Counted from the first letter of the stretch, positions 38,554 through 51,382 are shown. The stretch is 51,382 nucleotides of DNA from Planctomycetota bacterium (GCA_963580005.1 CAUZJR010000001.1:1-51382); one strand, 5' to 3'. Program-made: numbers and translations. Notes: a model not told the origin generated them from the sequence alone.

Positions 38554-40311
38554 ATGACGCTTGGTTCACAATCTTGGCGGCGGATGCTGGCCCTGTTGAT
38601 CGCCGGACTGATCACCATGGGGACCCCTTCGGCCGTTCGAGCCCAGGACGACGAGGCCGATGACACCGACAGGTCGGCTGCCGTGCCGCTGGTCATCATC
38701 AACGTGGCCAGCGTCGACCGCCTGCTCGGCGATGTGAAGTACCTCTTCGAGACCGCGGGACAGTCGCAGATCAACGAGATGATCGACGGCGGCCTGTCGA
38801 CGGTCAACAACCTCAAGGGGGTCGACCGCAAGAAGCCCTTGGGCGTGATGATTTTCCTGGCCCCGGGGTTCCCACCCCGTCCGATCCCGGTCGGGTATCT
38901 GCCCGTGGAGAGCATCGACGAGCTGACTCAGACGATCGGCGGCGGCACCACCTCTCTCAAGCCGGTCGACGGCGAAGAGAACCGTTACGAGTTGGTCGGA
39001 CCTCGCGGTCGCCAGCAGATCCTGCTGCGAGGCGGTTACGCGTTCATCAGCACCGACGCCGAAAATCTCGATCAGAAATTCCTCGACCCCGCCAAGCTCA
39101 CCGGTGGCCTCTCGGCCCGCCACGACCTGGCGGTCACCCTGCGGCTGGACACGGTTCCCGACGCGGTCAAGACGACCCTGCTGGGTGTGCTGAGGGGTCA
39201 GTTCAATGCCAACATGCAGCAGCGTGACGACGAGCCTGACGGCCCCTACCAACTGCGGCGTGCCAACGAATCGAACATGCTGGAGTTCATCGAGTTGCTG
39301 CTGGCCGAAGGCGACCGGATCACGCTGGGCATCAACGCTTCGAAGGAGGACAAGGACGCGGTCATCGAGTTTCAGTTCGAGGCCAAGCCCAACGGCAAGT
39401 GGGCCAAGGCGCTGGCCAAGATCGATTCGCGGCCCAGCTATTTCGCCCCGCTGCTCGACGAGAAGGCTCCGCTGAGTTTCTCGCTGTCGTGGAAGATGGA
39501 CGACCGCGAGCAGGGCAACACGACCGAGTTCCTCCGCGTGATCGAACCTCAGATCATCTCTCAACTCGAGCCCGTGGCTCCGGCAGTCCGCAGTCTGTTT
39601 GCCGCCCTGAACAAGACGGCCGAGACGGGTCATGCCGATGCGTTCTTCCAATACAAGGTGTTGCCGCCGGAGCGGATGGCGCTCTACGGGGGACTCAAGG
39701 TCGAAGACGGCCAGAAGATCTCCGCCTCGGTCCGCTCGATCATGGCTCAGCTGAAGCAGAACCCCGAGGTGGGCGAGATGGAACTTGATGTTGACTCGCA
39801 CAAGGGCGTTTCGTTTCACCGGATCGGGAGTCGCGAGAGTGCTGTGAGCGCGTTGAACCAGCGGATCTACGGTGGCAAGCCGTCGGTCTATATTGGCACC
39901 GGACCCAACGTGGTCTGGTTCGCCCTGGGCGACAGCAGTTCTTTGGAAGCCACCAAGACGGCGATCGACGAGTTGGCTGCCGCACGGGCGACCGTGGGCA
40001 AGCAGAAGCGAGGTGCTCCCTTCCAGTTCGTGCTCAACATGTCCAGTTGGCTCGACAAGATGGACGCCCAGCGGCCCTTCGCCGCGCGGGCTCGTACGGC
40101 TTTCGCCGGAGGAGGCGACCGGTTGCAGGTCGACATCCGACCCTCGGAGAACGGCATGCGGTTCCAGCTGAAGGTCGAGGAGGGCTACCTGAAGATGCTC
40201 GGAGCGGCCATCGGCGGCGGCATCCAGCGTCAGCGGCAGCGGGCCGAAGAGAGGCGGAAGCGGCGACTGGATGAGACGCCGGGGTCGACCCGGAAGCGTC
40301 AGCAGCGCTAG
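38554..40311 (+). CDS. Secreted hypothetical protein (585 aa), basic C-terminal tail
   Basis: Signal-like MLALLIAGLITMGTPSAVRAQ. Globular-looking composition throughout. The C-terminus is QRQRQRAEERRKRRLDETPGSTRKRQQR. I recognise no motif. Confidence 0.6.
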   Translation: MTLGSQSWRRMLALLIAGLITMGTPSAVRAQDDEADDTDRSAAVPLVIINVASVDRLLGDVKYLFETAGQSQINEMIDGGLSTVNNLKGVDRKKPLGVMIFLAPGFPPRPIPVGYLPVESIDELTQTIGGGTTSLKPVDGEENRYELVGPRGRQQILLRGGYAFISTDAENLDQKFLDPAKLTGGLSARHDLAVTLRLDTVPDAVKTTLLGVLRGQFNANMQQRDDEPDGPYQLRRANESNMLEFIELLLAEGDRITLGINASKEDKDAVIEFQFEAKPNGKWAKALAKIDSRPSYFAPLLDEKAPLSFSLSWKMDDREQGNTTEFLRVIEPQIISQLEPVAPAVRSLFAALNKTAETGHADAFFQYKVLPPERMALYGGLKVEDGQKISASVRSIMAQLKQNPEVGEMELDVDSHKGVSFHRIGSRESAVSALNQRIYGGKPSVYIGTGPNVVWFALGDSSSLEATKTAIDELAAARATVGKQKRGAPFQFVLNMSSWLDKMDAQRPFAARARTAFAGGGDRLQVDIRPSENGMRFQLKVEEGYLKMLGAAIGGGIQRQRQRAEERRKRRLDETPGSTRKRQQR

Positions 40312-41271: not shown

Positions 41272-43197
41272 ATGGCCGCTCCTCAATCCCCGGTCCCCGA
41301 TCCCGGTGCTCCGGGCACGTCCTCCAGCGGCCGCGGGCGTCGCCGCGCGTTCCGCCTGTTGACGGTCTTTCTGGCACTCTGCCCCTTCGTGGTGCTGGAA
41401 ACTGTGCTGTGGGGCCTGGATGTCGCCGATCCCTCGCTGGCCGATGATCCGCTGTCGGGGTTCAACCGCTCGGGGCGGCTCTTCGAAGCCGACACCCGGG
41501 ACGGCGTTTATCGGACGGCTACGGCACGAGGCGTGTTCTTCGGTGATCAGGAGTTCGCCGCGGTGAAGCCCGAGGACGGATTTCGGCTGTTTTGCCTGGG
41601 GGGATCCACCGTACGAGGACGTCCCTACACCACCGAGAGTTCGTTCACACGCTGGTTGGGGCTGGAACTGGCCGAGCGATCCGAGGGGCGAACGATCGAA
41701 GCGGTCAACTGCGGAGGACTTTCCTATGCCAGCTACCGCCTGAGGCCGATCGTGGCCGAGGTGCTCGGGTATCAGCCCGACCTGCTGGTGGTCGCCACCG
41801 GTCACAACGAGTTCCTGGAAGACCGCAGCTACCGGGGTCTGAAGGACCGCAACCAGGCGATGGCCTGGCTGGAGGACACGGCGATGTCGCTGCGGACGGT
41901 GACGCTGTGCCGGAGGTGGCTGGGAGGTGACCCCGAGCCGGTCTCCGAGGACGGCCCGTCGGAGGTCGAAGCCCGTCTCGACCATCAACGCGGGTTCGCG
42001 TCGTATCAACGCGACCTGCCGTGGCAGGACGAGGTGGTCGAGCAGTACGGGCGATCTCTGGAGACGATGATTTCAGCCTGTCGTGAGGCCGGGGTGCCGC
42101 TGCTGCTGGTTCGGCTGGGTTCGAACCTGCGGGACTGCCCCCCGTTCAAGTCGCAGCACCGCGACGGGTTGAGTGTCAAGGAGGCTGCGTTGTGGCAGGC
42201 GGCGATGGATGAAGGAAAACTGCGATCCTCGCAGCGGGAGTTCGAAGCGGCGTTGGCTGCCTACCGCAGGGCCGCGGAACTCGACAACCAGCATGCCCTG
42301 GTTGCCTGGAGGATCGCTCGAACACTCGATCGACTCGGACACGCCGAACCCGCGGCGGTTGCCTACCGTAGGGCCCGCGACCTGGACGTGTGTCCCTTGA
42401 GAATGATCGGGCGGCTGGATCGGGTGCTGACTGCGGTGGCAAAGGCCACCGCAACGCCCCTGGTCGATGCCGCCTTGGAGATCCGCAACGGGAGTCCCGA
42501 GGGACTGCCGGGATCGGACTGGTACGTCGATCATGTCCACCCGACCCTGCAGGGGCACCAGGAAATCGGCAGGCTGCTGGCCGAGGCGGTGGGGCGGGAG
42601 GGGTGGTTGAAACTCGATGCCCCGATGGACGCCGCGCGGTCGCGGCGGCACCGACGTCGACAATTCCGGAGACTGGGACCGGTCTTCCTGGCCAACGGGG
42701 CACGGAGGTTGGGATGGCTCGAGAGCTGGGCCCGTCGGCAGAGGCTCGATCAGGAGATCCGGCCGGTTTCCACCAGTGAGTACGCACGAGCCGGCTGCCG
42801 GGCGGTCGATTTCGGAAAATGGGACGACGCCTGGACCGCCTACGCCCAGTCGCTGGCCGTTTCCAAGGATGCCGTTCCCGCCGTGTTGATGATCCTGCAG
42901 CATGCTCGACGGCTGTTTCAGCAGGGTCGATCCTCGGACGCCCGCGACCTGGTCGATCGGCTCGGAGAACTGCCCGATGCCCAGCAGGGAGCCCTGGCCC
43001 CCTCGTGGTCCCGGGCGGCGCTGGTGCTGGCCGTCGAGCGAGGTGACCGCGAAGCGGCCAGCGAGCTGCTCGACCGATACGAGCGACTGCTGCAGACCAC
43101 CACAGAATCAGCCGCGGTCACAAGCACCGGGTGGCTGGAGGTGATGCCCGATGTGCTCAAACGAGCCAGGCGCCTGGCTGGCCGGGGTGGCGACTAG
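41272..43197 (+). CDS. SGNH/GDSL-like hydrolase with a C-terminal TPR-like helical region, N-terminal membrane anchor
   Basis: FRLFCLGGSTVRG (block I Ser), a GxND-like ATGHNEF block, DHVHPT (block V D-x-x-H), and helical repeats (AALAAYRRAAELDNQHALVAWRIARTL). Confidence 0.65.
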   Translation: MAAPQSPVPDPGAPGTSSSGRGRRRAFRLLTVFLALCPFVVLETVLWGLDVADPSLADDPLSGFNRSGRLFEADTRDGVYRTATARGVFFGDQEFAAVKPEDGFRLFCLGGSTVRGRPYTTESSFTRWLGLELAERSEGRTIEAVNCGGLSYASYRLRPIVAEVLGYQPDLLVVATGHNEFLEDRSYRGLKDRNQAMAWLEDTAMSLRTVTLCRRWLGGDPEPVSEDGPSEVEARLDHQRGFASYQRDLPWQDEVVEQYGRSLETMISACREAGVPLLLVRLGSNLRDCPPFKSQHRDGLSVKEAALWQAAMDEGKLRSSQREFEAALAAYRRAAELDNQHALVAWRIARTLDRLGHAEPAAVAYRRARDLDVCPLRMIGRLDRVLTAVAKATATPLVDAALEIRNGSPEGLPGSDWYVDHVHPTLQGHQEIGRLLAEAVGREGWLKLDAPMDAARSRRHRRRQFRRLGPVFLANGARRLGWLESWARRQRLDQEIRPVSTSEYARAGCRAVDFGKWDDAWTAYAQSLAVSKDAVPAVLMILQHARRLFQQGRSSDARDLVDRLGELPDAQQGALAPSWSRAALVLAVERGDREAASELLDRYERLLQTTTESAAVTSTGWLEVMPDVLKRARRLAGRGGD

Positions 43198-44084
43198 CGT
43201 CGAGACGGGAAGGCGGCCACGAAGCCCGCTTCGTCGATCGGCAGCTTCATCTTCACCTTCTTCTTGTTGAAGCTCTCGCGTGTCCGCTTGCTCTGGCTCC
43301 ACTCCTGGGCACTCAGCGAGCCGTCCTTGTCCTTGTCGAGTGCCTTGAAGGTGTACTTGGCGATCCGGACCAATCCGGCGTCCTTCTTCGAAGCCGCCGG
43401 AGCGGCTGCTGCCGAAACGGTGATCGTTGTCGAGGGGGCCGCCGTGGTGGAGGCCGCAGTCGGATCGGCGGAGGCTGCCGCAGGAGCCGCCGTTGCGACT
43501 GCTTCGGTACTCGAACCGGCAGACAGTTCACGCGGGGTCAGGAATCCGTCGCCGTTGGCGTCGAGTGTTCGGAACTGGGCGATCGCCGCCAGCTTCCATT
43601 CGTAGAGACCCAACTGCCCATCCTTGTCCAGGTCCAGACCGGCGTACTGCTCGGGCAGGTCCACGGTGACTCGCACCCTGGGCTTCGGCTTGCTCTGTTC
43701 CTTCGAGGAACCCCCGCGCCGACCTCGGTCGCTTCCCTCGCGGCCACCCCTGCTGCTACCACCCCTGCTGCTGGTGCCGCGTTCTCCGCCTCGCATCCGG
43801 GAAAAGAACGACTGCATCTGCTGGCGGCGGTCGTCGGGAGACGCGTTGCTGGAGCGCATCTGAGAGAAGAAACTCCGCATCCGCTCGCCGCGATCATCGC
43901 CACCTCCGCCACCCCGCTGCGTCATCATGAAGCTCATGCCGCCGCGTTGACCGTTACCGAAACGGATCGTCTGGGCCGATAGGGTGGCCGGGCAGGCCAG
44001 CAGAGTGGCCAGGGACAGCAGCAACAGTGCCAACTTACTCGAGTGGGCAGAGCAGGCTGCCAAGAGCACGCGTGACAGAGTCAT
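43194..44084 (-). CDS. Secreted EF-hand calcium-binding protein with an RGG/SR-rich low-complexity centre
   Basis: Signal peptide LLLLSLATLLACPATLSA. Three DxDxDG loops: LDLDKDGQLGLYEW, LDANGDGFLTPRE and LDKDKDGSLSAQEW. Confidence 0.8.
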   Translation of the reverse strand: MTLSRVLLAACSAHSSKLALLLLSLATLLACPATLSAQTIRFGNGQRGGMSFMMTQRGGGGGDDRGERMRSFFSQMRSSNASPDDRRQQMQSFFSRMRGGERGTSSRGGSSRGGREGSDRGRRGGSSKEQSKPKPRVRVTVDLPEQYAGLDLDKDGQLGLYEWKLAAIAQFRTLDANGDGFLTPRELSAGSSTEAVATAAPAAASADPTAASTTAAPSTTITVSAAAAPAASKKDAGLVRIAKYTFKALDKDKDGSLSAQEWSQSKRTRESFNKKKVKMKLPIDEAGFVAAFPSRR

Positions 44085-44317
44085 CAGAAATCTCCCATTT
44101 TCTCCAGTCTGAACACCGCTCGGCGGGGTTTGTTCCTCTAGAATAGCCCCAAAACCGTCCGAAGGGAAACAACCAGTTGGAGGTGTTATCGGAGTAATCG
44201 GAATCTCCGCCAGATCGCCTCACAGTTTCTCACGTCCCCCCCGACCCAACACCAGTCCATTCCGACCTGTTCGGTGTGGGCGAACTAGACTGCTGGAAAT
44301 ACGATCTCCTAACCGTA

Positions 44318-44407
44318 CAAGACCAACAAGACCAACAAGACCAACAAGACCAACAAGACCAACAAGACCAACAAGACCAACAAGACCAACAAGACCAACA
44401 AGACCAT
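44318..44407. repeat. 9-nt tandem repeat caagaccaa x9 plus one imperfect copy (caagaccat)
   Basis: Units every 9 nt from 44318 to 44398, with the last copy at 44399-44407. T-less unit. It lies in the 394-nt divergent intergenic region, 72 nt upstream of the ATG at 44479. Confidence 0.95.
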
Positions 44408-44478
44408 TGGTCCTGTCCTCCGAGCCGCCTGTCGCGGCTCACTGGCAGGGAGCCTGACTTGGCATGGAAGTATTGATC

Positions 44479-47400
44479 ATGAAGAGCTTGAATCTCAACA
44501 GCCTGTCACGACTCGCCGTCGCCGTTGCGGTCCTGGCGGGAGCCCTGGTCGACACGGCCAGCACAGAGGCTCAGCGAAGCCGCCGAGGACGTGGTGGAGA
44601 CAGCTTGCTGGACATGGCCCGGGATGAGGACATCCGGGCGGAGTTGAAACTGACCGATCAGCAGGCCGATTCGATCAGCAAGATCCGCGACAGTTTTCGG
44701 AGCAGTTTCGAGAAAGCTCGCGAGTTCGGGCAGCGGATCCAGGAGGCGAAGGACGACGCCGAGCGGACCAGGATCGAGGCCGAGCGGCAGACGTTCTTCG
44801 ACACGCAGCGGAAGGCTGCCGAGGCCGAACTGGCCAAGGTGGTTTCCTCCGAGCAACTGCGTGGTCTCAGAGTCCACCAGCTGAAACGGCGGGGAACCGG
44901 GGGGCTCGGTGCCCAATGGGTCGTCGCCGAACTCAAGCTGACCGACGACCAGAAGACGAAACTGAAGGCGATGCTGACAGGACATGATCAGCAGAAGCGG
45001 GCGTTGGACGCGGCGAGGATGGCGGTGTTCCGCAACCGGGAATTGCCTCGCGACGAACGCGAGACGAAGTTCAAGGCCCTCGAGACCCAACGCGAACAAC
45101 TCGGGAAGCAGCGTGACCAGGCCGTGCTGGGCCTGCTGACCGCGACCCAGAAGACCAGCTTCCAGGCCCTGGCCGGCACCTCGGCCGAGGGGACTCCCAA
45201 GCCGGTCGCCGATACCAAGCCCGCCACCACCACAACCAAACCTGCAACCGCGCCCGCAACGGCCCCGGCAGCCGATCGGGGTGCCCGGGTGGTGGGTGCC
45301 GACGGCAAGCCGGCCACCGCGACGGTTGTGGCCTCGTTTGGTGCCCAGGCCGGTGCGAGGTCTTCCCAGCCGGTGAAGTCGCTGAAGTTCAACTTTGTCC
45401 AGGCTCCCTGGTCGGACGTGCTGAAGATGTTTGCCGACGCGGCCGCTTTGACCTGGGACCGGGAAACCGTGCCTCCGGGGACATTCACCTACTTCGACGA
45501 CAAGGAATACACCCCGACCGAAGCCCTCAACGTGCTCAACGGAGCCTTGCTGCAGAAGGGCTTCATCCTGCTCCGTCGCGATCGCTTCGCGGTGGTCGTC
45601 AACGTCGACGACACGGTGCCGCCCAACCTGGTGCCGACCGTGGCGATTGCCGATTTGCCCGCTCGGGCCAGCAATGAACTGGTGCGGGTGGTGATGCCTC
45701 TGGAAGGCAAGGACGCGGCCAAGGCGGCCACCGAGGTGGCAGACCTGCTGGGCCCTCAGGGCAAGGCCACCGCACTCTCGGTCGCCAACTCCCTGGTCGT
45801 CACCGGCCTGGCCAACAACGTCGCTGAGATCCACGCGGTTCTCAAGAGCTACATTCCCGAGGAAAAGAAGGACGTGACGTACGAGGCCTTCGTGCTGCAG
45901 AACGTCTCGGCACTCTCGGCCGAAAAGATGGTCCGAGACCTCTTCGGGCTGCAGGCTCGTGGTGTCCAGAACGTCAGTGCGGCTTCCGGAAGCGGAGGCA
46001 GCAGCGGAGGCAGCAGCCGGGGCAGCAGCCGGGGCAGCAGTCGAGGCAGCAGCCGGGGTGGCTCGGATCCTCGCAGCCGCTTTGCCGCGATGTTTGGCGG
46101 GAGCCGGGGAGGCTCGCGTGAGTCCAGCCGACAGCAGAGTTCCGGTCGTGGCGCTTCGGCCGGCGGCAGCGTTTCGGTGACCGTCGATGAACGGACCAAC
46201 ATGCTGCTGGCGATGGCTCCGCCGGCGCAGATGGAAGTGATCCGCAAGGCGATCGAGACGATCGACATTCCCGCCGGTGACACCCCGAATCGGTTCGCCG
46301 AACAGGACCAGGACAACGAGCCGTACCTCGAGGTCTACAAGGTCACTTCGGCCGATACGATGGAAGTTACCAAGACACTTGACGTGCTGTTCCCCGGTGC
46401 GGTGATCAACGAGGACGGGCGGTTCCGCACGATTCACGTGATGTCCAACAAGCGGGGGCACGACGAAATCCAGCGGATGATCCGCAAGCTCGACGGGCAG
46501 GGCGGTGGCCTGACCACCACCGCGATCATCCCCATCCGGCAGGACCCGGCCACGCTGACCGCCACCCTGCAGGGGCTCTACTCCAAGGACATCGAAAATG
46601 CACCCTCGGTGATCGCCAATCCCGGCTACCTCGTCGTCCGCGGCAGTGCCGAGCAGATCGCCGAGATCAAGCAGATGGTCACCCAGCTCGACAGCGCCAT
46701 CGGAGTCTCGATGGCCACCGGAGGTGGACCGATCCGCACCATCCCGCTGGGCGGCCGCGATGTGAACTCGCTGCTGAGACTGCTGCAGTCGGTGACACCC
46801 AACCCGATCCGAATCAGTACCCCGTCCTCGGAACGCGGACCGATTCGTGAAGAACGAGTGCCCTCGGCCGACGATCCCCGGGTGAGACCCGAGACCGGTG
46901 CGGCCGGTGGTGGAGCCGGTGGCGCGGCGGCCGGTGCCGATCGCAACTCGGCCAACTTCAGCGTGCCACCTCTCAGACAGGCTGGCAACGGGGCTGGCAA
47001 CGGGGCTGGCACTGGTGGAGCACCCGAGACACCCGCCGTTGACGACGTTCAGCGGCACCGCAGGCTGGCGACTTTCGTGTTCCAGAACCTCGACGCCGAC
47101 AAGGACGGCAAGTTGACCCAGGTCGAGTGGTCGGCGAGCAAGCGGACGCGTGAGTTGTTCGAGGCCCGCAAGATCTTGCTGAAGTTGCCCGCCGACAAGG
47201 CCACGTTCCTCAAGGCCTTCGTCCTGCTCTCTTCTGCGCCCGAAGCAGGCGGCGGATCCGATGAGGCTCAGCCGACAACTCCCCAGGCTCCCGCGTCCGC
47301 GACGGCCCGGCCGCCGCTGCGGCCCGATCCCGAGCCGGCTGCGGCGGGAGACGAGCCGCTTGCGGAAATCGTGATCGAGATCCGCGACGGCAACCTGGTC

Positions 47401-48522
47401 CTGATCTCCGACGACGAGGAGGCTCTGGACCGGCTCGAAGCACGGTTGCAGTCGCTGATGGCTCACATGTCACCCAAGACGACCTGGACCATCTTCTACC
47501 TTCGCTCGGCCGACGCGACCGAGGCGGCCCTGATGCTCGAGAGGCTCTTTCCTCAGAGCTCGGTGTCGGCCACCGCCAGCGGTTCCGGCGGCAGTCTCTT
47601 CGGCGACCTCACCGGAGGACTCTCGTCGATGGGCAGCAGCCTGATGGACATGACCGGCATCAACTCACTCGCCAATGGTCCGATGTCGTTGCGGATCATT
47701 CCCGAGACACGATCCAACGCTCTGTTTGTTTCGGGTCCGGCCGACCAGATCGCGGATGTCGAGAGCGTCCTGAAGATCCTGGATGCCGCCGAACTCCCCG
47801 CACAGCTCCGCAGCCGTGCCCCTCGGTACATCACCGTCGAGCATGCCGACGTCAACGAGGTCGCCCAGATCGTTCGCGACGTCTACAAGGAAGAACTCAC
47901 CGCCAGTAGCCGCTCGGGCGGCAACGCGAGCCAGGCGATGGGCGGCAACCCGCTGGCGATGCTGATGGGTGGTGGTGGCGGCAGCAGCCGCGGCCGCAAC
48001 TCCCGCGGTGGCGGCAACAGCCGCCAGAGCGGTGTGAAGATGACTCTCGGCGTCGACAGCCGCACCAGCGCCCTGGTGATCTCGGCCAGTGACTCGTTGT
48101 TCAAGCAGGTCGAGGCTCTCGTCAACACGCTCGACACCGCGGCCAAGGAGGCCAAGCGGACCGTGAGGATTGTGACCCTGGAAAACACCGATTCGACGGC
48201 GATCCAGCAGGCCGTCCAGGCCCTGCTGCCCAAGACGACCGTCAGCACCGGCGGCGGGGCGAGTGGTCCGACCGGGTTCGGTCCCTCCTCGAGCCGAGCG
48301 AGCAGCCGCGGCGGCAGCGGCGGCACCGACCAGGCCGCGCGGATGCGGCAATTCATGGAAATGCGGCAGCGACAGGGGCGTGGCGGATCGACCGGCGGTC
48401 GCACCAGCCGGGGATCCAGTGGCGGATCTCCCTTCGGCGGCCGCACCGGCGGTTCGTCTCGAGGCGGGTCCTCAGGCGGCCGCTCACCGTTTGGCGGCCG
48501 TGGCTCGAGCCGAGGGCGGTAG
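44479..48522 (+). CDS. Giant GspD-N-domain (secretin N0/N1-like repeats) protein with an LTXXQ-like N-terminal module, an internal EF-hand module and G/S/R-rich tails; no recognisable secretin pore domain
   Basis: Signal peptide [25 protein letters not shown]0-like [23 protein letters not shown]. Seven secretin_N-type endings (e.g. [86 protein letters not shown]). It lies immediately upstream of gspE/gspF. The C-terminus is purely G/S/R-rich. Confidence 0.8.
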
Positions 48523-48527
48523 CCGCC

Positions 48528-50210
48528 ATGGACATTGAATCCATTCTGCAGCAGCGCGGGCTGGTCAGCGAGGACCAGTGGCGCGAGGCCCGGGCACAGG
48601 CCGGCGGCCGCCGGATCGACAGCGTGTTGGTCGAGATGGGGCTGTTGAGCGAGGAGCAGGTGCTGGGGGCGTTTGCCGATGAACTCGGAATGGAGTTCAT
48701 CGAACTGGGTGACTTCGAGGTCGACACCGAGTTGATCAGCCAGTTCCCCACCGCGGCCATCTTCCGACACGAGGTGCTGCCGCTGGATCGCGATAACGGC
48801 AGCGTGAGGGTCGCCACCAGCGACCCCTTCGATCTCGAAGCTCTCAGCGAACTCTCCAGCCTCTCGGGACTCGAACTCGATCCCGTCCTCGCCCGCCACG
48901 AAGACATCGTGGAGCTGATCAAGGCCAACCTGGGCGTCGGTGGTGATACGATCACCGAGCTGGTCCAGCGCCAGGCCGACGATGGAGTCGAACTGCTCGA
49001 GGACATCGACGACCTCGACGGGGACCTGGCCGAGGAGGCCCAGGCGGCGTCGGTGATCCGGCTGGTCAACGAGCTGTTGATCGAGGCGTTGGAGCTCAAC
49101 GCGACCGACGTGCACATCGAGCCCCAGGAACACGGCCTGAGGGTCCGCTATCGCATCGACGGGATGCTCAGACCCCAGCCGGTGCCTCCCGAAATCAACC
49201 AGTTCTATACCTCGATCGTCACGCGGCTGAAGATCATGTCGCGGCTGAATATTGCCGAGCGGAGACTGCCTCAGGACGGCAGAATCAAGCTGCGGATCCG
49301 TGGTCGTGAAATCGACGTGCGGGTCTCGATCATCCCGATGATCCACGGCGAAGGAGTCGTGCTCAGGCTGCTCGACAAGAGCAAGATGGTCTTCGACCTG
49401 GTCAACGTCGGCCTGCCGCCGGAGATCATCGCGGTCTTCAACGAGCTGATCCAGCTGCCTCACGGCATCATCCTGGTCACCGGACCCACCGGCTGCGGCA
49501 AGACCACCACCCTGTACAGCTGTCTCAACGAATTGAAGTCAACGACCACGAAGATCATCACGGTCGAGGATCCGGTCGAGTACCAGACCGAGGGGATCAA
49601 CCAGATCCAGGTCCACACCAAGATCGGCCTCACGTTCGCTCACGGGCTCCGCAGCATCCTGCGGCACGACCCCGACGTGATCCTGGTTGGCGAAATCCGG
49701 GACAGCGAAACCGCCAACGCCGCGATCCAGGCCTCCCTGACCGGTCACCTGGTCTTCAGCACCCTGCATACCAACGACGCCGCGAGTGCTTTCACTCGGC
49801 TGATCGACATGGGTGTCGAGCCGTTCCTGGCTTCGAGCACGGTCGAGGGCGTGATGGCTCAACGGCTGATCCGTCGCTTGTGCAAGGAATGTCGCGAAGC
49901 GTACACGCCGGTGGACTCCGAGCTGCCGGCCGATTTCCCGCGGCCGTTGCCCGAGGTGCTCTATCGGCCGGTCGGCTGCCGGGCCTGTCGAGACACCGGG
50001 TTTTCGGGCCGGACCGGGATCTTTGAATTGCTGCGGACCGACGAGGGTGTCCGCGACCTGTGTGTCGAGCGAGCCAGCTCGAGCCGGATTCGTCAACACG
50101 GATTGGAAAACGGAATGACCACGCTGCGGGATTCAGGCTGGTTGAAAGTCGCAGCGGGAGTCACGGATGTCGAGGAGATTGCACGGATCACCAAGGGAGA
50201 CCTGGTCTGA
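48528..50210 (+). CDS. gspE: Type II secretion / type IV pilus assembly ATPase (GspE/PilB family)
   Basis: N-terminal T2SSE_N-like domain. Walker [11 protein letters not shown]. Asp box VEDPVEY. Walker B ILVGEIRD. His box [10 protein letters not shown]. Tetracysteine CKEC...CRACRDTG. Confidence 0.92.
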
Positions 50211-50310
50211 ACCAGGCTGCTCCAGGCAACCCCAAGCCCCATCCTGAAACACGTTTCCCTGTCTCTGAACCATCCTCTCGGCAGCAATGCCGGCGGAGCC
50301 GAGTGATCCG

Positions 50311-51382
50311 ATGGCCGAATTCCAGTACACAGCCAGAGAGCTGACCGGTCGCGAAGTGACCGGTGTGCTGAACGCTGGCAGCCAGGGCGAGGCGGCCAGT
50401 TCGCTTGCCGGCCAGAGCCTCTTTCCGCTCTCGATCGTGCTGGCTGACGAGGAAGTTCGGCAGCAGAAGTACGCCGGGCGGAAGGTCAAGTCGCGGCTGC
50501 TGGCCACCTTTTTCAGCCAGCTGGCCGACCTGCTCCGCTCGGGTGTCCCGCTGTTGAGATCACTCGATCTGCTCGACCGACAGATCAAGGTCGGCTCTCT
50601 GAAACTGGTGCTCGGCGAGGTGCGGAACCGGGTGGCCGACGGGACCCCGCTGGCCACCGCGCTGGGGCAGCACCCCAGGGTCTTCAACGACCTGGTCGTC
50701 AGCATGGTCCGCGCCGGCGAGGAGGGCGGGTTTCTCGAGGACGTGCTCAAGCGGATCGCCACCTTCACCGACCACCAGGAAGATCTCAAGGGACGCGTGC
50801 TCGGAGCGATCGCCTACCCCGCCTTCCTGGTCGTCACCGGCTTCACGGTGGTCACGGTGATGATCGTCTGGTTCGTGCCCAAGTTCGAACCGATCTTCGA
50901 CCGGCTCAAGACCCAGGGCGAATTGCCCTGGGCCACAACCACGTTGCTGGGGATCAGCGGATTCCTGCAGCAGCCCCTGGTCGAGGGCAGCGGGGCACAG
51001 GCCTGGATGCTGATCCTGCTGGCCGTGGTGGGAATCGGGTTTGGCGGCATGATGTGGTCTCGCACCGAGGCGGGACAGTGGTTGACCGACCGGTTGCGTC
51101 TGAAACTGAATGTGATCCGCAGCTTGGCCACGGCGCGGTTCTGCCGCATCCTGGGCACGCTGCTGCACAACGGAGTCCCGATTCTCAATTCGCTGAGGAT
51201 CGCCAAGGACGCCTCGGGCAACATGGTGCTGGCCGGAGCCATCAACACCGCGGCAGACAGTGTCCAGGACGGCAAGTCGCTGGCCGGACCCCTGGGTGCC
51301 AGTGGAGAATTCGCGGATGAAATTGTCGAGATGATTGCCGTGGGCGAGGAATCCAACAACCTCGAACAGGTCCTGATCAACA
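50311..51382 (+). CDS. gspF: Type II secretion / type IV pilus platform protein (GspF/PilC family), 3'-truncated by the window end
   Basis: My own translation from the ATG at 50311 reads MAEFQYTARELTGREVTGVLNAGSQGEAASSLAGQSLFPL... It continues FFSQLADLLRSGVPLLRSLD...MVRAGEEGGFLEDVL... then TM segments, and a second repeat FCRILGTLLHNGVPILNSLRIA...MIAVGEESNNLEQVL. The frame is open to position 51382. An in-frame ATG also exists at 50287. Confidence 0.88.
   Translation, partial: MAEFQYTARELTGREVTGVLNAGSQGEAASSLAGQSLFPLSIVLADEEVRQQKYAGRKVKSRLLATFFSQLADLLRSGVPLLRSLDLLDRQIKVGSLKLVLGEVRNRVADGTPLATALGQHPRVFNDLVVSMVRAGEEGGFLEDVLKRIATFTDHQEDLKGRVLGAIAYPAFLVVTGFTVVTVMIVWFVPKFEPIFDRLKTQGELPWATTTLLGISGFLQQPLVEGSGAQAWMLILLAVVGIGFGGMMWSRTEAGQWLTDRLRLKLNVIRSLATARFCRILGTLLHNGVPILNSLRIAKDASGNMVLAGAINTAADSVQDGKSLAGPLGASGEFADEIVEMIAVGEESNNLEQVLIN

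Follow-up and report, generated by a model that had tools for sequence, protein, structure and literature searches.

Secretins form 12-15-mer outer-membrane rings, and those of type II secretion systems (T2SS) are textbook single-protein channels. Their N-domains stack as periplasmic rings, and the PilQ secretin of Thermus thermophilus, which belongs to a type IV pilus (T4P)/DNA-uptake machine, carries an unusually long array of these domains (N0-N5) with long loops and inserts, its six rings making up a complex 350 Å long that spans a wide periplasm (D'Imprima 2017, PMC5745081). A pore-less relative is known from the type III secretion system (T3SS) of rhizobia: RhcC1 (NolW) is a short N-domain remnant, keeping only the N-terminal part with the first N-domain, and is thought to have been kept because it links RhcC2, the separately encoded secretin, to the inner-membrane ring (Abby & Rocha 2012, PMC3459982). 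In a full-text literature search, only such analogies were found, and neither a pore-less GspD paralogue nor the architecture of a planctomycete T2SS was described. Here, we analyzed 51,382 nucleotides of DNA from a Planctomycetota bacterium (GCA_963580005.1 CAUZJR010000001.1:1-51382; "the window" below means this whole stretch), in which the gene directly upstream of gspE and gspF encodes an exported 1347-aa protein with the ring-building domains of GspD. We refer to it as the D-like gene (GspD-N). Judged by its sequence, it is an old pore-less paralogue and not the GspD that forms the pore here; the operon's genuine outer-membrane secretin is a second protein, X, whose gene stands last (3') in the operon or, in some genera, is unlinked to it.

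Domain architecture of the D-like protein

The region holds a single long open reading frame (ORF), 44464..48522 (+), of 1352 aa. Since homologues align from Met6 of this ORF, a start at 44479, giving 1347 aa, is likelier. Residues 300-1352 of the protein were modeled with AlphaFold2 (AF2) from an alignment of 80 sequences. The gene and its parts, with predicted local distance difference test (pLDDT) values where available, are as follows.

44479..48522 (+), D-like gene (GspD-N, pore-less secretin paralogue), 1347 aa; alternative upstream ATG at 44464
44479..44571 (+), Sec-type signal peptide, an h-region followed by STEA/Q, read from the sequence
44596..45183 (+), all-helical N-terminal domain with two LKLTxxQ motifs; AF2 pLDDT >95 for residues ~50-236
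45379..45603 (+), N0 domain; AF2 pLDDT >90; Foldseek leads to the N0-N1-N2 crystal structures of XcpQ and GspD
45646-45852 (+), Secretin_N module N1; Pfam PF03958, and beta-alpha-beta-beta-alpha in AF2
45877-46263 (+), Secretin_N module N2, with a Gly/Ser/Arg-rich insert; Pfam PF03958 and AF2
46324-46491 (+), Secretin_N module N3; Pfam PF03958 and AF2
46516-46704 (+), Secretin_N module N4; Pfam PF03958 and AF2
46732..47466 (+), module N5, split by an insert of ~180 aa; in AF2, strands and helices flank the insert on either side
about 47062-47220 (+), EF-hand module inside the N5 insert; BLASTP match to the neighboring EF-hand gene, E 3e-16
47485-47787 (+), module N6, with a Gly/Ser-rich insert; strongly conserved; AF2
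47821-48150 (+), module N7, with a Gly/Ser-rich insert; strongly conserved; AF2
48151..48519 (+), half module, Ser-rich linker, conserved amphipathic helix and Gly-rich SPFGG/GGR tail ending in RGR

A model that had read this DNA without database searches (the sequence-only reading) had described an N0-like segment followed by seven Secretin_N-type modules, and this layout was borne out by three methods. Pfam placed PF03958 on six stretches of the protein (whole-protein E 8.8e-52), AF2 returned, with high confidence, N0 and seven complete beta-alpha-beta-beta-alpha modules, trailed by a half module, a single helix and a tail predicted to be disordered, and the best matches of the model in the PDB, found with Foldseek, were the N-domains of PulD, XcpQ and GspD (E 1e-9 to 1e-6). 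In the AF2 model, disordered Gly/Ser/Arg-rich inserts interrupt four of the modules, always in the alpha1-beta2 loop (N2, N5, N6 and N7). N0 is among the best-conserved parts of the family: of the 25 columns that are invariant in alignment A1, 8 fall within it. The signal peptide was assigned by eye, and its A-x-A-Q cleavage site is almost invariant in the family alignment.

The helical domain (residues ~45-236, a confident all-helical fold in AF2) has weak similarity to the LTXXQ/Spy/CpxP group, with a Pfam LTXXQ match at E 0.0011, under the cutoff, and NCBIfam CpxP and Spy matches at E ~0.005. Foldseek against the PDB gave nothing significant for it, all matches having E >0.6 and the best Spy match E ~1.5. 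A Spy/CpxP chaperone identity was thus not established, and some D-like homologues carry the JGI label "Spy/CpxP family protein refolding chaperone".

The missing pore was the central claim of the sequence-only reading, and it held. PF00263, the C-terminal barrel and gate domain that defines secretins, was not detected by Pfam in the D-like ORF even at E<=1, a comparison of the D-like family profile with the secretin-domain profile (hhalign) gave a probability of 0.14%, and no beta-barrel follows N7 in the AF2 model. These three results rule out a cryptic or degenerate pore domain in the ORF. Across the 51-kb window, a hidden Markov model of the X secretin, run against all six-frame ORFs of >=80 aa, found no secretin pore. 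The best NCBIfam family for the D-like protein is GspD (TIGR02517), with 141 bits against an equivalog cutoff of 351 and the best stretch covering only model positions 31-231 of 600; SctC (TIGR02516) matched at E 1e-5. The protein therefore resembles GspD/PulD/XcpQ in its signal peptide, in N0 followed by beta-alpha-beta-beta-alpha N-domains, in its place upstream of gspE, in its best family and in its Foldseek matches, but it lacks the barrel, the gate and the S-domain, has seven N-domains after N0 instead of three, and is extended by a helical domain at the N terminus and by a Gly-rich tail.

In place of a pore, the protein ends, as had been noted from the sequence, in about 95 Gly/Ser/Arg-rich residues; their composition is 30% Gly, 20% Ser and 15% Arg. 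The family consensus of the tail helix is D..R..F.QRMR.R.GGG, and among 112 full-length D-like homologues the C terminus is RGR in 30 and GGR in 23, with at least three FG/GF dipeptides in the last 70 residues in 44. In composition, the tail recalls FG-type disordered meshes. The layout of the tail region at 48328-48519, a helix followed by a Gly-rich SPFGG/GGF/GGR stretch, is kept across the family, as is the Ser-rich linker ahead of the helix.

A simple explanation for such a protein would be that it is a truncated pseudogene, or an assembly or frameshift artefact of a normal gspD. Nothing beyond the missing domain itself speaks for this. The same D-like protein, with the same end, is encoded in six contigs from different metagenome samples, one of which (L001) matches the window with 99.79% identity across 12.9 kb, and over 100 homologues from Planctomycetaceae, some as distant as ~31% identity, share the same end point. 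A database search returned 148 D-like homologues; all of the ~120 listed have PF03958 and none has PF00263, so orthologues with a normal pore, which could have overturned the sequence-only reading, did not appear among them. Most of those listed are 1200-1400 aa long, and they include cultured Gimesia, Alienimonas and Schlesneria as well as Planctomycetaceae metagenome-assembled genomes (MAGs). We also scanned 1.8 billion representative proteins with phmmer, using N6-N7 and the tail as query, and obtained 365 clusters at E<=1e-30. Among the best 150 of these 365, every match of ~1000-1450 aa aligns up to its own C terminus with the same tail, and no relative of that length has a pore after N7. 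Since gspE starts 5 nt past the D-like stop, there is no room for a pore domain, and no frame of the window holds a secretin-like ORF. Together, the contigs, the homologues, the conserved tail and the gspE spacing exclude a pseudogene, frameshift or assembly artefact, to which we give almost no credence.

Opposite the D-like gene runs an antisense ORF of 986 aa (44506-47466, -), which probably results from the high G+C content and codon bias and is not a gene in its own right.

The T2SS-like operon and its secretin X

Two further genes of the operon lie in the window, which ends inside gspF as the sequence-only reading had stated.

48528..50210 (+), gspE-type ATPase, starting 5 nt past the D-like stop; PF00437 E 3e-133 plus MshEN; TIGR02533 608 bits against a cutoff of 630
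50311..>51382 (+), gspF-type platform protein, cut by the window end; PF00482 E 2e-43; TIGR02120 273 bits on the partial sequence

The D-like gene is probably co-transcribed with gspE. That reading had also suggested that pseudopilins or a separate pore might lie downstream, and both were found when the operon was followed in contig L001 and in orthologous loci. In L001, gspF is complete (407 aa) and is followed by gspG, H-, I- and J-like prepilin-type genes, a gspK-like gene, a PilM/GspL-like gene, a gene for a protein with immunoglobulin (Ig) domains, and X. GspG matched PF08334 (E 3e-14) and TIGR01710 (85 bits against a cutoff of 88.9). The minor pseudopilins carry N_methyl motifs and match XpsH/GspH, GspI (E 4e-8) and GspJ/T2SSJ, and GspK matches NF037980 (E 3e-22) and T2SSK_1st (E 6e-12). 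A 529-aa protein with one transmembrane segment has weak PilM/GspL-like similarity (TIGR01175, E 1e-7). The 599-aa protein, with an N-terminal transmembrane segment and Ig domains, matched neither GspM nor GspC, and no GspC match (HR domain/PDZ) was found in any operon protein. By TXSScan-style criteria for a T2SS, the locus thus has GspE, GspF and GspG, the minor pseudopilins H-I-J-K and a pore-forming secretin; because E, F and G score slightly under their equivalog cutoffs, we call it T2SS-like.

Using the GspK-like protein as anchor, we retrieved 21 loci from species-representative genomes. The order of an EF-hand gene beside D-like-E-F-G-H-I-J-K-L-like-Ig-X recurs across loci L001-L029, including Gimesia and many Planctomycetaceae MAGs; in Schlesneria, the D-like gene is solitary, away from gspE and gspF. 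These results show a complete T2SS-like operon with the D-like gene at the classical gspD position.

X is a protein of ~1310-1370 aa with N0, 6-7 N-domains and a PF00263 pore. In loci L009, L010 and L012, Pfam found 6-7 Secretin_N domains plus PF00263 at E 1e-40 to 1e-43; the best NCBIfam model for X is GspD (TIGR02517, 337-394 bits), and the motif VPWLGDIPLVG is present. Of the 18 loci in which this region is visible, 12 have an X-type secretin as the last gene of the operon, the copy in the Pirellulaceae locus L023 being more distant. X does not close the operon in the Thalassoglobus and Planctomicrobium-type loci. In Thalassoglobus, a 47%-identical X orthologue lies at an unlinked locus and the D-like gene still adjoins gspE; X orthologues are present in the genera where X is unlinked.

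For X in the strain of the window, we rely on two loci, L001 for the gene start and L009 for the full secretin domain. In L001, X starts ~11 kb downstream of the D-like stop and was called as 1307 codons, running off the fetched locus; over the available stretch, codons 1-184, it shares 82% identity with its L009 orthologue, in which the pore domain is complete. The exact X of the window's strain was not recovered in a search that was swamped by low-complexity repeats, the best match being 66% identical over 184 N-terminal residues. Between the D-like protein and X, N0 is 31-38% identical and the other modules are ~20% identical. Because only N0 aligns well, the comparison does not support an origin in which X was recently duplicated and one copy then lost its pore; the paralogy is old.

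Thus, the earlier headline of a "GspD" without a pore stands in part: the pore-less protein is real, but it is not the pore-forming GspD of the system, and the locus is not pore-less, since X lies downstream. The sequence-only reading proved accurate in all checked details, and its suggestion that the protein may pair with a pore encoded by another gene has genomic support in an X that closes the operon. The apparent paradox of a pore-less T2SS is in this way resolved, and what remains is a conserved, undescribed architecture of two secretin paralogues.

How far does this architecture match those already described? The nearest precedent is the RhcC1/RhcC2 pair. As with RhcC1, a pore-less PF03958 protein holds a conserved position among core genes, and in both systems the pore secretin is a separate gene at variable distance, so that the D-like protein shares with RhcC1 the possession of N-domains only, the core-gene position and the separate pore gene. 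It differs in lying in a T2SS-like operon (gspE/F/G-K, best family GspD) instead of a T3SS with SctC, and in having N0, seven modules and extra domains. RhcC2, in turn, is a Tad-type secretin without N0, whereas X is of the GspD type and has a full N0 followed by 6-7 N-domains. The D-like protein and X are a paralogue pair and not a simple split, and the relation of the D-like protein to RhcC1 is one of analogy, not membership. The likeness to Thermus PilQ lies in the long N-domain array with its loops and inserts; the difference is that PilQ is one polypeptide with its own pore, whereas here the array is split over two proteins, one of them pore-less.

Three further observations concern X. 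The secretin at L009:10485-14519 and its orthologues contain long low-complexity repeats, QPK/AQPK in the linker and GEKP at the C terminus. In X orthologues of the window's clade, PF02983 (alpha-lytic protease prodomain) matches inside an N-domain (E 7e-12), which is probably a fold resemblance. In Thalassoglobus (L030:12145-13855), the unlinked X is followed by a 286-aa protein without a Pfam match and by a BON-domain protein, both of which are possible secretin-associated factors.

Candidate roles for the D-like protein

The sequence-only reading raised as possibilities a periplasmic scaffold role and a link to the planctomycete envelope, and both are inferences. With modest confidence, and by analogy with described systems, we lean toward an adaptor or extension model, in which a stack of D-like rings would work together with the separate long secretin X. 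The exported D-like protein would oligomerize through N0 and its seven modules into a stack of periplasmic rings, and this stack would join the inner-membrane platform (GspE/F/L-like) to the N-terminal rings of X. Two proteins would then make up one trans-periplasmic conduit with enough length for the wide periplasm of planctomycetes, which is enlarged and variable (PMC5394234). Docking would likely involve N0 and, at the C-terminal end, the half module, helix and tail, all of them conserved, and the EF-hand protein encoded next door would act as a likely Ca2+-dependent partner. The conservation of N0 and that of the half module, helix and tail are consistent with such a conduit, as are the lack of a GspC match in the operon and the existence, in other Planctomycetota, of secretins lengthened within one chain to 25-50 N-domains. 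Several points weigh against it. With an N0 and 6-7 N-domains of its own, X has no obvious need for an extra stack; the paralogy between the two proteins is only distant, as the identities above show; the D-like gene is sometimes unlinked from T2SS genes, standing alone in Schlesneria; one third of the D-like chain is predicted by AF2 to be disordered; and the AF2 model, being a monomer, is uninformative on oligomerization.

That X carries a full N-domain set also fits a different role, in which the D-like protein would be an assembly factor or peripheral scaffold off the channel axis that chaperones, pilots or surrounds X, its Spy/CpxP-like helical domain and N-domains templating or stabilizing X multimers that cross the periplasm. 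TsaP, which surrounds PilQ, and the pilotins are points of comparison. The weak LTXXQ/Spy/CpxP similarity of the helical domain and the JGI chaperone labels on some homologues agree with this role, and the conserved C-terminal helix is reminiscent of pilotin-binding S-domains. The Spy-like similarity is not significant, however, and eight ring-building domains are a large outlay for a chaperone; moreover, N0 is among the most conserved parts of the D-like protein, and N0 elsewhere touches inner-membrane components (PMC3459982). On balance, we consider an off-axis role unlikely.

The low-complexity sequence raises a further idea, namely a periplasmic gate or selectivity filter, in which the Gly/Ser/Arg- and FG-rich inserts and tails would form a mesh in the lumen, possibly under Ca2+ control through the EF-hand partner. 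The inserts lie in the alpha1-beta2 loops of four modules, the Gly-rich SPFGG/GGF character of the tail is kept and FG/GF dipeptides recur in it, and the EF-hand neighbor and the EF insert in N5 would supply the Ca2+ element. In Thermus PilQ, the periplasmic "gate 2" is built of loops (PMC5745081). The idea is speculative, and the low-complexity sequence varies widely among homologues. We think a gate quite improbable; it is compatible with the adaptor model and does not exclude it.

Genome organization bears on a fourth reading, that the D-like protein acts without X, for example in a periplasmic pseudopilus function, or in another machine such as a crateriform or fiber apparatus, its linkage to gspE being regulatory only. 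The unlinked X of the Thalassoglobus and Planctomicrobium-type loci and the solitary D-like gene of Schlesneria point in this direction, and crateriform structures, which tie the outer to the cytoplasmic membrane in planctomycetes, are of unknown composition (PMC5394234). Against it, an X-type secretin closes the same operon in most of the visible loci (with L023 more distant), and X orthologues exist in the genera in which X is unlinked. We regard a role independent of X as very unlikely.

Extending the adaptor model by analogy, one could picture a two-tier T2SS conduit in Planctomycetaceae, in which ~8 D-like rings would lie under the ~8-ring part of a long secretin, reaching ~60-70 nm by PilQ ring heights, with Ca2+ acting through the EF-hand partner and the Gly/FG inserts serving as an internal gate; such a conduit could be crateriform structures or part of them. 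This fuller picture is tentative, and we think it doubtful that all of it applies.

If the adaptor model is true, the periplasmic conduit of a T2SS can be modular, made from two gene products. The finding itself carries the "split secretin" idea of RhcC1/RhcC2 from T3SS to T2SS. The model offers a testable answer to how a T2SS crosses the enlarged, variable planctomycete periplasm, and the D-like protein, X and the EF-hand partner become candidate parts for uncharacterized planctomycete envelope-spanning structures. For annotators and secretion-system detectors, the locus is a warning that the pore is not encoded by the gene found where gspD is expected; the NCBI (PGAP) name for both the D-like gene and X is "secretin N-terminal domain-containing protein".

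Giant relatives, EF-hand neighbor and upstream region

The phmmer scan with N6-N7 also reached giant Secretin_N-repeat proteins of other Planctomycetota (e.g., Phycisphaerae HUU10639.1; P0200), with E down to 1e-111. These share the repeat type and the N0 start with the D-like protein but differ in carrying 22-50 repeats in one chain, and at least P0200 ends in a PF00263 pore. About 45 of the best 150 matches are such giants, of 2,679-5,532 aa with 22-50 Secretin_N domains after N0 (P0142-P0145, P0184, P0200, P0234). P0200 has 3423 aa, with 35 repeats plus the PF00263 pore, and P0234, which carries a "partial" annotation, comes from a Phycisphaerae MAG. The giants are uncharacterized, and secretins built from dozens of ring modules do not seem to have been described.

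Upstream of the D-like gene lie two further features.

43194..44084 (-), EF-hand protein of 296 aa, exported and divergently transcribed; Pfam EF-hand_5/1/6/7, E 2e-14 to 4e-9
44317..44406 (no strand), perfect tandem repeat of a 9-nt unit (ACAAGACCA x10), between the divergently transcribed EF-hand and D-like genes; Tandem Repeats Finder 10.0 copies, 100% match

An EF-hand homologue adjoins the D-like gene at all loci in which the flank is visible, namely in the window's clade, Gimesia panareensis (L007), Thalassoglobus, Planctomicrobium and one further Planctomycetota MAG. The C-terminal EF module of this neighbor is 55% identical to the N5 insert of the D-like protein, and the insert is confined to the window's close clade (11 of 121 sequences). 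Such a lineage-specific fusion of the EF module suggests, as a Rosetta-stone hint, that the EF-hand and D-like proteins act together, possibly in a Ca2+-dependent manner, and the EF-hand protein is a probable partner of the D-like protein. A motif like that of the tail helix was seen by eye in the window's copy of the EF-hand protein only; a regular expression was negative in five orthologues but also missed the query's own motif, and we make no claim from it.

The 9-nt repeat sits ~70 nt upstream of the D-like start codon. The number of complete CAAGACCAA units differs between near-identical contigs from different samples (window 9, L001 11, L002 6, L003 6, L005 7), and the sole 18-nt gap between the window and L001 is due to this difference in copy number. 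The repeat may be an element through which the operon varies in phase or expression.

Farther upstream, 38554-40311 (+) encodes an exported 585-aa protein without a Pfam match. Gimesia panareensis has a 654-aa homologue, 28% identical, at the equivalent place upstream of its EF-hand gene, and the 585-aa protein may be part of the same gene neighborhood.

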